Shown in pieces: positions 1,937 to 2,271 of a DNA stretch of 4,106 nucleotides. Every line of letters begins with the position of its first letter. Position 1 is the stretch's first letter. Position numbers and translations under genes: made by a program. The DNA is from a virus (Duplodnaviria; Heunggongvirae; Uroviricota; Caudoviricetes). The notes below the pieces were generated by a model that saw nothing but the letters and a program-made list of their open reading frames with translations, was not told the DNA's origin and searched no databases. Location of the stretch: the IMG/VR virus record IMGVR_UViG_2740892211_000015, positions 1 to 4,106 of that record. One strand, written 5' to 3'.

Positions 1937-2029
1937 CAGAATATTTTCCTGAAAAATGACGTTGGCCAACGCGGGTGGATAACACGAAATCCTGAAAACT
2001 GGTAAAACCTAAGTGAATAAAAGTAAAAA

Positions 2030-2065
2030 CCCCGTTTGTTGGCAGCAAGCGGGGTTTTGTGTTTT
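2030..2065. terminator. Bidirectional rho-independent terminator-like hairpin in the R-Rz intergenic gap
   Basis: Stem CCCCGTTTG (2030-2038) pairs with CAAGCGGGG (2046-2054) with one G-U wobble, a 7-nt loop, then TTTTGTGTTTT at 2055-2065. An A-tract at 2025-2029 precedes it, so it could terminate on either strand. Confidence 0.6.
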
Positions 2066-2156
2066 CTGACCTTGAGTAAGGCAAGGGAGAAATTATGGGT
2101 AGGGAGGTACTTTCCCTGTGAGGAAGTATAAAAGATTCTTTCTGAGGTTGTCCATT

Positions 2157-2270
2157 ATGAAAGGCATTGAAGTGGAGACGCCAGCCAGTCTGGATTTAAC
2201 AAGAGCGGCAGCTTTTGCCATTCGTATTGTGGCCATTGCTGTTCTGGTCTGGGCAATCCGTTGGTGGTGA
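2157..2270 (+). CDS. Hypothetical 37-aa single-pass membrane mini-protein (MKGIEVETPASLDLTRAAAFAIRIVAIAVLVWAIRWW) immediately upstream of Rz
   Basis: ATG at 2157 with GAGG at 2144-2147 about 9 nt upstream. Hydrophobic C-terminal half. Stop TGA at 2268-2270 lies 1 nt before the Rz ATG, which suggests translational coupling. Below the ORF-track size cut-off; found by reading the sequence. Confidence 0.3.
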   Translation: MKGIEVETPASLDLTRAAAFAIRIVAIAVLVWAIRWW

Positions 2271-2271
2271 T

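Follow-up and report, generated by a model that had tools for sequence, protein, structure and literature searches.

The lambda-type lysis cassette, taught as holin, endolysin and spanin, is among the best understood programmes in virology. In a 4,106-nt stretch of a Caudoviricetes virus (IMG/VR record IMGVR_UViG_2740892211_000015, positions 1 to 4,106; hereafter the window), the endolysin gene R of such a cassette ends at 1936 and the spanin gene Rz starts at 2272, leaving a gap of 335 nt (1937-2271). We propose, with a probability of about 0.6, that this gap is a self-contained, mobile late-operon module in which a terminator and an antisense RNA guard a membrane microprotein whose synthesis is coupled to translation of the spanin. 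The window covers the lysis region in the late operon of a lambdoid Escherichia coli prophage. Over positions 1392-3682 it shares 99% identity with prophage Sp4 of O157:H7 Sakai, and the gap sequence is 100% identical in many E. coli genomes. R and Rz overlap by 4 nt in lambda, as do rrrQ and rzpQ of the K-12 Qin prophage (cassette essQ-ydfR-rrrQ-rzpQ), which bears out a preliminary description of the window that had taken the gap for a non-canonical insertion between normally adjacent genes.

The terminator, the antisense RNA and the microprotein of the module are unstudied, and the open reading frame (ORF) is known only as a hypothetical annotation. About one in three complete E. coli genomes has the conserved module inside the lysis cassette, and the carriers include prophages of enterohaemorrhagic E. 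coli (EHEC) O157:H7, relatives of Shiga toxin (Stx) phages and LT-II toxin prophages. If the microprotein or the antisense RNA modulates lysis, the module bears on the release of Shiga and LT-II toxins, which proceeds via phage lysis. It also offers a well-defined case for the study of functional bacterial microproteins and cis-antisense RNAs.

A conserved microprotein gene

The micro-ORF (2157-2270, plus strand) starts with ATG and encodes 37 amino acids, MKGIEVETPASLDLTRAAAFAIRIVAIAVLVWAIRWW, with a polar head and a C-terminal hydrophobic helix ending in RWW; its Shine-Dalgarno (SD) sequence GAGG (2144-2147) lies 9 nt before the ATG. A longer form of 50 amino acids (2118-2270) starts at a GTG and adds a basic N-terminal helix, RKYKRFFLRLSI. 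Further upstream, a strong SD, AGGGAG (2084-2089; SD1), precedes an 8-codon leader ORF, MGREVLSL, which runs from ATG 2095 to TGA 2119-2121 (the whole element spanning 2084-2121). Its stop codon overlaps GTG 2118 (GTGA), and on inspection this element would be the ribosome entry point after the terminator described below. A second SD, GGGAGG (2101-2106; SD2), serves GTG 2118. In relatives, the homologous SD serves the ATG of a 60-aa ORF (E-type) and the GTG of a B-type ORF.

Both forms already stand in databases, the 37-aa form as the hypothetical proteins ECs_1094 (Sakai) and WP_000675931.1 (RefSeq), and the 50-aa GTG form as AAG56189.1 / Q8X4B6 in strain EDL933. The micro-ORF matches PHROG 4493 (E = 5.5e-16), 1115 and 3246, all of 'unknown function'. 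These profiles begin 13 residues upstream of the ATG, and E. coli and Salmonella proteins of the 60-aa E-type keep the motif KYKR..LRL. The GTG start is replaced by GAG in two related loci (L096 and L097), so the 50-aa form is not universal. Over the 39 nt between GTG 2118 and ATG 2157, synonymous divergence is 0.24-0.35, below the value of about 0.7 in the core of the ORF; this stretch may be promoter, coding sequence or both.

Pairwise comparison of the window with the lineages of L092 and L099 gives a synonymous divergence (pS) of 0.63-0.73 across the 37 codons and a nonsynonymous divergence (pN) of 0.04-0.10. The pN/pS ratio is thus about 0.08-0.15 with synonymous sites near saturation, and the amino-acid replacements between lineages are of the I/V/L type. 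Among 5426 complete E. coli genomes, 2037 have a match to the 335-nt gap, one that in 674 of them covers 80% or more of its length, and the exact microprotein occurs on at least 1000 contigs, frameshifted variants being rare. Taken together, these patterns of substitution and occurrence identify the micro-ORF as a real gene under strong purifying selection. Conservation as an ORF was the point that had been set beforehand as a test, and a pN/pS of about 0.1 in three diverged lineages answers it positively. A gene on the minus strand does not account for the pattern: the antisense frame that shares the wobble positions does worse, with a pN/pS of 0.15-0.25 and a length that varies from 47 to 105 aa.

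The preliminary description had also considered that the gap might be a degraded moron scar or the remnant of a deleted known gene, with the ORF and hairpin as leftovers. The A-type ORF of the window does look derived from the 60-aa E-type through an 11-residue internal deletion with disruption of the original start, and some copies are frameshifted (for example, L024 and L027). Against decay stand the intact A-type ORF, kept by purifying selection in three lineages at near-saturated synonymous divergence, its recurrence in about 2000 complete E. coli genomes, a hairpin that covaries and a promoter that is active. Homologues of the micro-ORF are all 73 aa or shorter, longer ones being read-through products of frameshifts, and no larger parent gene is found among them. 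Both suggestions are therefore not borne out, and a degraded remnant is very improbable.

The product, whether of 37 or 50 residues, is predicted to be a small hydrophobic, membrane-targeted peptide. AlphaFold models the 50-aa form with one long hydrophobic helix (residues 22-49; predicted local distance difference test above 90 for residues 31-50) and, with low confidence, a basic helix (residues 3-18). Hydrophobicity on the Kyte-Doolittle scale peaks at 2.60 for a 15-residue window (residues 33-47), and the positive-inside rule suggests an N-in topology in which only RWW would lie outside. The C-terminal transmembrane helix ending in WW that had been described at the outset is therefore retained as a predicted hydrophobic helix with an RWW end, with the refinement that its uncharged hydrophobic core, between two arginines, has just 11 residues. 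Pfam, NCBIfam and PADLOC gave no match for five types of micro-ORF. The supplements of the Sakai small-gene paper, which uses ribosome profiling (Ribo-seq), contain neither the peptide nor ECs1094. In the literature, no paper mentioning ECs1094 was found, and nothing relevant on ORFs between R and Rz or on type I toxins in lysis cassettes.

A bidirectional terminator upstream of the micro-ORF

The top terminator-like site in a scan of the window is a hairpin at 2026-2058 that can be read on both strands, with an A-run, CCCCGTTTG-loop-CAAGCGGGG and a T-run. Its stem has 15 pairs and its tail is GTGTTTTCTG. The core formed by CCCCGTTTG and CAAGCGGGG spans 2030-2054 and is flanked by an A-run (2025-2029) and a T-run (2055-2058), giving a hairpin followed by a U-tract on either strand. 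The T-tail of the plus strand extends to 2065, and the minus strand has U-runs at 2029-2025 and 2022-2019. Folding energies are -21.8 kcal/mol for the plus strand and -14.2 kcal/mol for the minus strand.

The outer frame AAAA-CCCC...GGGG-TTTT is invariant across 12 aligned lineage representatives, and the inner stem covaries. Stem pair 20-36 occurs as GC (5), UG (3), AU (2) and UA (1), and pair 19-37 as GC, GU or AU; the covariation score exceeds those of 500/500 shuffles and of all slid registers. Folding is stable on both strands in most lineages, with no consistent strand bias across independent stem lineages. G-U wobbles give the plus strand an advantage in a single stem lineage, the commonest one, others being neutral or favouring the minus strand. 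A terminator specific to the plus strand was therefore rejected, and the hairpin appears to be truly bidirectional. The hairpin is best described as a conserved, predicted bidirectional intrinsic terminator, and the flanking A and T tracts on both strands, together with the covariation, bear out its first description as such. A sub-threshold Rfam look-alike, rimP-leader, seen in searches of the window and nine related loci, is the terminator itself.

An antisense promoter active in lysogens

On the minus strand, a sigma-70 promoter lies at 2125-2154, with the -35 element TGGACA (2154-2149), an 18-nt spacer and the -10 element TATACT (2130-2125). It matches 10 of the 12 positions, is the best promoter-like site of the window and faces the terminator; the same promoter scan found no plus-strand promoter-like site in the gap. 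In relatives, just 25-35 nt or so separate the terminator from the first start codon. The minus-strand score exceeds that of the plus strand in 14/14 module variants, and the promoter is identical in L092 and L099 despite a pS of about 0.7 in the adjacent core of the ORF.

The promoter was predicted by sequence scan ahead of any look at expression data. Zehentner et al. (PMC10469882) mapped transcription start sites (TSSs) in EDL933 by Cappable-seq, keeping those reproducible in three biological replicates. In that genome (NZ_CP008957.1) the micro-ORF occupies 1271945-1272058 on the minus strand in a locus identical in sequence to the window, window coordinates being 1274215 minus the EDL933 position. 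Table S6 of that study lists for the micro-ORF gene a primary upstream antisense start (u-asTSS) at 1272098(+) in all 8 conditions, namely LB, M9, acid and salt, each in exponential and stationary phase. This site maps to window position 2117 on the minus strand, an A located 7 nt downstream of the -10 element. The antisense promoter is thus transcribed in uninduced EHEC lysogens in 8/8 conditions. It is accepted because of this mapped start, not because of a comparison with synonymous recoding. For the A/E family, the motif has no significant advantage over what recoding of the KYK...LSIM peptide would yield (p 0.1-0.33); for the B/C family there is one (p 0.001-0.03), the lineages there being related.

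The resulting antisense RNA would be about 95 nt long, in a range of 89-99 nt (2019-2117, minus strand), with a mapped 5′ end at 2117 and a 3′ end placed at the U-runs of the terminator (2029-2019). The terminator is the likely 3′ end because the start site at 2117, itself within the module, points toward it. The RNA is predicted to fold into three stem-loops with a free energy of -26.5 kcal/mol (z = -3.24), and 0/200 shuffled sequences were as stable. It is fully complementary to SD1, the leader ORF (2095-2121) and SD2 of the sense strand. Equivalents of 71-104 nt are predicted in 8/9 other module variants, the terminator not having been located automatically in L226 and L228, and the complement of the sense SD is kept in each. 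Rfam holds no family that matches the antisense RNA of the window or of the nine related loci.

The transcript could instead be mainly a trans-acting prophage small RNA (sRNA) similar to AgvB/AsxR or PasA-D, which would control mRNAs of host or phage by means of C/U-rich anti-SD motifs (CCUCCC, UUUCUCCCUU), with the micro-ORF as an independent neighbour. Constitutive expression in the lysogen would fit such an RNA, as would its architecture of two 5′ stem-loops and a terminator with U-tail, and insertion sites in lambdoid late operons are known to hold sRNA genes (PMC4104026; 10.64898/2026.05.13.724894). This explanation is nevertheless improbable: the body of the RNA is poorly conserved between lineages except for the complement of the sense SD, Hfq-CRAC lists no peak in the Sakai Sp4 gap, and the geometry of promoter and terminator is tied to the start of the micro-ORF in every context. 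An antisense RNA acting in cis on the micro-ORF leader is therefore preferred. The known prophage sRNAs AgvB, AsxR and Pas are located upstream of the holin gene and not in the R-Rz gap, and EcOnc32 and EcOnc49, suspected from their spacing, map elsewhere.

The same Cappable-seq table contains other start sites nearby. An antisense TSS at 1272853(+), upstream of the lysozyme gene, is present in all 8 conditions and probably belongs to a divergent hypothetical gene, RS06280, which the window lacks. Two more, at 1270844 and 1271016(+), are antisense to or upstream of the PerC/pchA gene.

Probable coupling of the micro-ORF to Rz

The translation-initiation region of Rz, GGTGGTGAT-ATG (2263-2274, plus strand), lies within the last codons (WW-stop) of the micro-ORF, and the micro-ORF stop TGA (2268-2270) is separated from the Rz ATG (2272) by a single T at 2271 (TGA-T-ATG). 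Because the initiation region of Rz is embedded in these codons, the two genes are probably translationally coupled, and the start/stop geometry, including the GTGA at 2118-2121, implies that coupling runs through the module. This agrees with the original view of a mini-ORF with a decent SD, coupled to Rz and stopping 1 nt before it. The sequence TGGTGGTGAnATG is kept whatever the upstream frame; in L072, a methylase gene reads MVVI-stop through it, with an ATGA overlap. The WW-stop therefore seems to be at least partly imposed by the ribosome-binding site of Rz, since TGGTGGTGA is kept when the methylase reads another frame. RWW was not retained as a motif of the protein: similarity between the A and B families is confined to the last 12 or so residues (hhalign probability 31%).

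These observations would also suit a micro-ORF that is a mere translational coupler, carrying ribosomes past the hairpin to a weak Rz start, with a peptide devoid of function. Rz has its SD inside the last codons of the ORF and the element TGGTGGTGAnATG survives in any upstream frame; the stop/start chain of GTGA and TGA-T-ATG is continuous, and in lambda and Qin, Rz is coupled straight to R. A coupler alone leaves unexplained the strong amino-acid constraint across all 37 codons, the existence of conserved paralogous families in arrays of up to four, and the occurrence of the same protein ahead of genes other than Rz, including L226 with a 71-nt gap and a downstream terminator. We regard it as very unlikely, and read the micro-ORF as a coupled gene whose peptide is itself selected.

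Recurrence of the module among relatives

Relatives were collected as 80 IMG/VR loci encoding close relatives of Rz, with R locatable upstream in 76. In 76/76 of the latter, the R-Rz gap measures 297-1426 nt, is never zero and carries 1-4 micro-ORFs. A scan of genome contigs with Rz gave only 4 loci. The micro-ORFs of the gaps fall into three PHROG groups: A/E (4493, 1115, 3246), B/C (6632) and D (4906). In an alignment with the E-type of E. coli and Salmonella (57-60 aa), the A-type lacks 11 internal residues of the latter. In most variants the module consists of an A-tract/hairpin/T-tract followed after 25-35 nt by a strong SD and the micro-ORF; in the window, the extra 8-codon leader ORF shifts the start of the micro-ORF downstream.

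The genes on either side vary. The module follows a GH24 lysozyme in the window, Peptidase_M15_4 in L092 and L102, GH108 in L099 and a transglycosylase-like endolysin in Salmonella (L225), and it also follows LT-II enterotoxin genes (L096-098) and Salmonella tail-fibre genes (L226, L228, L229). On its 3′ side are divergent Rz types, a 60-aa lipoprotein (phrog_7528) or a tail-fibre chaperone, whose gene usually starts 1-10 nt from the micro-ORF stop; in L226 the gap is 71 nt and has its own downstream terminator. The module is thus not specific to Rz, nor to pinholin/SAR-type cassettes. By comparison, the first part of the gap (1937-2005, plus strand) is a 3′ untranslated tail of R that travels with the GH24 type of endolysin and not with the micro-ORF module: it diverges by 7-18%, versus 20-30% at third codon positions of R, and is missing where the module follows M15 or GH108 endolysins. 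This tail occupies the first 65 nt or so of the gap and joins the module near AAGTGAATAAAAG.

Some R-Rz gaps also contain an antirepressor or methylase gene. With LT-II toxin genes at the same place in other relatives, this supports the idea, put forward in the preliminary description, that the R-Rz junction is an insertion hotspot (PMC3252337).

Several variants show features of their own. In L096-L098 (1-924 and 1380-1614), the LT-II heat-labile enterotoxin A and B genes lie directly upstream of the module, the T-run of the terminator is lost and the downstream lipoprotein gene is frameshifted. In L092 (1616-1798; also L103, L125, L147 and L194), the micro-ORF is coupled through TGA-T-ATG to the 60-aa phrog_7528 lipoprotein, which has the lipobox LLVGC. 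L092-type cassettes have two holin-like genes and an M15 endolysin, with no Rz/Rz1 within 1.5 kb downstream, and the lipoprotein might be an unrecognised outer-membrane lysis component. The 642-nt R-Rz gap of L034 and 26 other loci contains a row of four micro-ORFs of 28-48 aa (types C, D, E and A′) whose stops and starts overlap or abut all the way into Rz. The N-terminus of the D-type, KVLCVIVGISF, resembles the Rz transmembrane segment RVLCVVIIVLL, which may be chance or partial duplication. In Salmonella, tandem micro-ORF paralogues (L228, 1056-1368; L229, 165-528) lie between an SASA/DUF6645 esterase-type tail gene and a tail-fibre chaperone, again with an A-tract/hairpin/T-tract terminator upstream. 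Rfam also finds STnc100 in L040 (1796-2005; 176.7 bits) and the sok antitoxin RNA in L112 (3097-3267; 108.2 bits), each within a few kb of the lysis cassette, so that several RNA genes lie close together in these late regions.

Comparison with known systems

The gene order is that of the lambda-type cassette S-R-Rz/Rz1 of lambda and Qin, with a homologous class II holin, DUF1327 gene, GH24 lysozyme and Rz/Rz1 at the same late-operon position. The differences are the 335 nt between R and Rz and the coupling of Rz to the microprotein instead of R. As a candidate component of the cassette, the micro-ORF lies within the S-R-Rz/Rz1 block; it has no holin, antiholin or spanin homology and no exclusive association with lysis genes. 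Work by Ziermann et al. in 1994 reportedly described lysA of phage P2, between the endolysin gene K and the spanin genes lysB/lysC, as a non-essential membrane-protein gene that affects lysis timing. Here too, an accessory membrane-protein gene is placed between endolysin and spanin genes. LysA differs in its size (about 140 aa), its several transmembrane segments and its lack of homology to the micro-ORF family, and the micro-ORF family, unlike lysA, also occurs outside lysis cassettes. We know of no terminator or antisense RNA at P2 lysA.

A moron, in the sense of Juhala et al. (2000), is an autonomous promoter-gene-terminator unit inserted between conserved late genes. HK97 gp15 is said, from work by Cumby et al. 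in 2012, to be a small inner-membrane superinfection-exclusion protein, encoded by a moron with its own promoter and expressed from the prophage. Likewise, the micro-ORF could be a moron for lysogenic conversion or superinfection exclusion whose product is made in the lysogen and has nothing to do with lysis. Like gp15, its product is predicted to be a small single-helix membrane protein encoded between lambdoid late genes; it sits at classic moron sites, namely the R-Rz junction and the region after tail-fibre genes, and in L226 terminators lie on both sides. The insertion does separate genes that are normally adjacent, and neither an own upstream sense promoter nor a downstream terminator was found in the window. 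There is no room for a sense promoter between the terminator and the start codon. In contrast to gp15, the gene is guarded by a terminator directly upstream and by a constitutive antisense RNA over its ribosome-binding sites, and it is tightly coupled to the downstream late gene. With its terminator ahead of the ORF and its promoter directed oppositely, the module is not a classical moron, and expression of the microprotein as a lysogenic trait is decidedly unlikely.

The layout is also reminiscent of toxin-antitoxin (TA) systems of type I with a divergent sRNA that overlaps the toxin leader, such as tisB/istR-1, shoB/ohsC, zorO/orzO and dinQ/agrB. Shared features are a gene for a small hydrophobic peptide, a constitutive short RNA from the opposite strand that is complementary to the ribosome-binding region of the peptide mRNA, and a location in prophages. 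The coupled leader ORF recalls mok of hok/sok, and the pair of in-frame starts (50 and 37 aa) recalls the prophage-borne sprG1/SprF1 system (PMC10579593). Of the features that define such systems, the small hydrophobic peptide and the antisense RNA over the initiation region are present, and no sense promoter of the peptide gene's own was found; the sense RNA would come from the Q-dependent late operon through the terminator. Further differences are the translational coupling of the ORF to a downstream structural or lysis gene and the layout of the peptide, with a polar or basic N-terminus and a C-terminal hydrophobic helix, which is opposite to that of Hok, Ldr and Fst. Searches for the peptide (Pfam, NCBIfam, PADLOC) and for the RNA (Rfam) revealed no membership of Hok/Sok, Ldr/Rdl, TisB/IstR, Ibs/Sib, ShoB/OhsC, Zor/Orz or DinQ/AgrB, and the type I TA survey PMC2887945 does not mention the micro-ORF family. 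The module thus resembles a type I TA system in layout and fails as a member on two points, a toxin promoter and homology to known families.

EHEC and enteropathogenic E. coli (EPEC) prophage sRNAs (AgvB, AsxR, the EcOnc series and PasA-D) provide a further comparison, being short, terminator-ended lysogen RNAs of the Q-dependent late region that share their terminator with convergent transcription (PMC4104026). They lie between Q or an esterase gene and the holin gene, bind Hfq and act in trans. The RNA described here is cis-antisense to a coding leader and appears neither in Rfam nor in the Hfq-CRAC list. On balance, the arrangement is best classed as a variant lambdoid lysis cassette with an uncharacterised, antisense-guarded microprotein module.

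Proposed mechanism

In the lysogen, unmodified polymerase arriving from upstream would be halted at the terminator, and the antisense RNA would pair with any read-through leader and mask its ribosome entry sites; both locks together would silence the microprotein and the coupled Rz/Rz1. Upon induction, Q-modified polymerase would pass the terminator and late mRNA would outnumber the antisense RNA. The SD just past the hairpin could now admit ribosomes, which would translate the leader and then the microprotein and, having finished the latter, re-initiate on Rz. The product would be a two-helix inner-membrane microprotein, anchored at its C-terminus. A dependence of spanin expression on Q antitermination is a reasonable expectation, no sense promoter having come to light between terminator and ORF. 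If the microprotein or the antisense RNA modulates lysis, an RNA-level safety lock would be added to late-gene control. The scheme makes testable predictions on the size and ends of the antisense RNA, on silencing in the lysogen and on coupling to Rz.

A gene that is twice locked and encodes a hydrophobic helix suggests a membrane-active protein whose use is confined to the close of the lytic cycle. Its most likely function is that of a membrane-active accessory in the lytic end-game, acting on lysis timing or envelope disruption, and a role unrelated to lysis is possible given the tail-fibre contexts. That the peptide acts together with spanins or holin, as the preliminary description had suggested, is a conjecture.

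Several points weigh against a guarded membrane microprotein that acts in lysis. Occurrence of the micro-ORF family in tail-fibre regions weakens a spanin- or lysis-specific role, the uncharged core, with 11 residues, is short, and no similarity of the micro-ORF to holin, antiholin, spanin or type I toxin families was found. Translation, membrane insertion, toxicity and a role in lysis are all putative for the microprotein. On the RNA side, conservation of the promoter is by itself no proof of selection (p 0.1-0.33 against recoding in A/E), the 3′ end and abundance of the antisense RNA are deduced, and the Sp4 gap of Sakai lacks a listed Hfq-CRAC peak. The Cappable-seq evidence covers the listed antisense TSS only, so that a sense TSS may exist in the gap, and EDL933 has several copies of the module among which reads may be multi-mapped.

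A broader proposal can be offered tentatively. In Stx, LT-II and other enterobacterial lambdoid prophages, the modules of the R-Rz gap could encode a new class of membrane-active microproteins guarded by antisense RNA and terminator in a layout like that of type I TA systems, with at least three PHROG groups and arrays of up to four. These would constitute a fourth lysis component, silenced in the lysogen by the constitutive antisense RNA, released solely under Q antitermination and co-translated with the spanin, which would set the timing or completeness of lysis and hence the release of phage and toxin.

Other features of the window

The window opens with a partial gene (98-637) that encodes a C-terminal portion, a DUF6645 domain; in relatives, full-length homologues of it carry the annotation SASA-family esterase. 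It is followed by a class II holin (788-1003), a DUF1327 gene (1008-1352) and R, a GH24 lysozyme of 177 aa assigned to the endolysin family phrog_7 (1403-1936). Downstream of the gap, Rz encodes a 155-aa i-spanin (2272-2739, plus strand; phrog_13 aligned over 1-154 of 154, E = 4.6e-74), with the o-spanin gene Rz1 embedded in it (2492-2677, plus strand; phrog_3198, E = 1.7e-31). A second strong intrinsic-terminator-like hairpin is found at 640-787, between the esterase-like ORF and the holin gene (stem 720-748, T-run to 755). This is the position in which a Storz-lab preprint puts PasA/PasC and is the site of AgvB/AsxR-type prophage sRNAs; Rfam gave no match to AgvB or AsxR at 640-787.

About 470 nt 3′ of Rz, and preceded by a very T-rich stretch (3040-3150), a PerC-family ORF (3205-3519) encodes a PerC/PchA-type regulator of the LEE pathogenicity island; in Sakai Sp4 it carries the annotation pchA (ECs_1091). 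A YlcI/YnfO (DUF3950) gene follows on the minus strand (3601-3825), and a lambda-type cos site, GGGCGGCGACCT, is found at 4033-4044. The flanks of cos (3990-4080) presumably match the right and left ends of lambda. This places the lysis/pch region just upstream of cos, with lysis at a late-operon position about 1.3 kb upstream of it. A perfect 17-bp palindrome, ATGATAATTATTATCAT, at 3980-3996, about 40 nt before cos, resembles a Fur-box-like or cosQ-region element.

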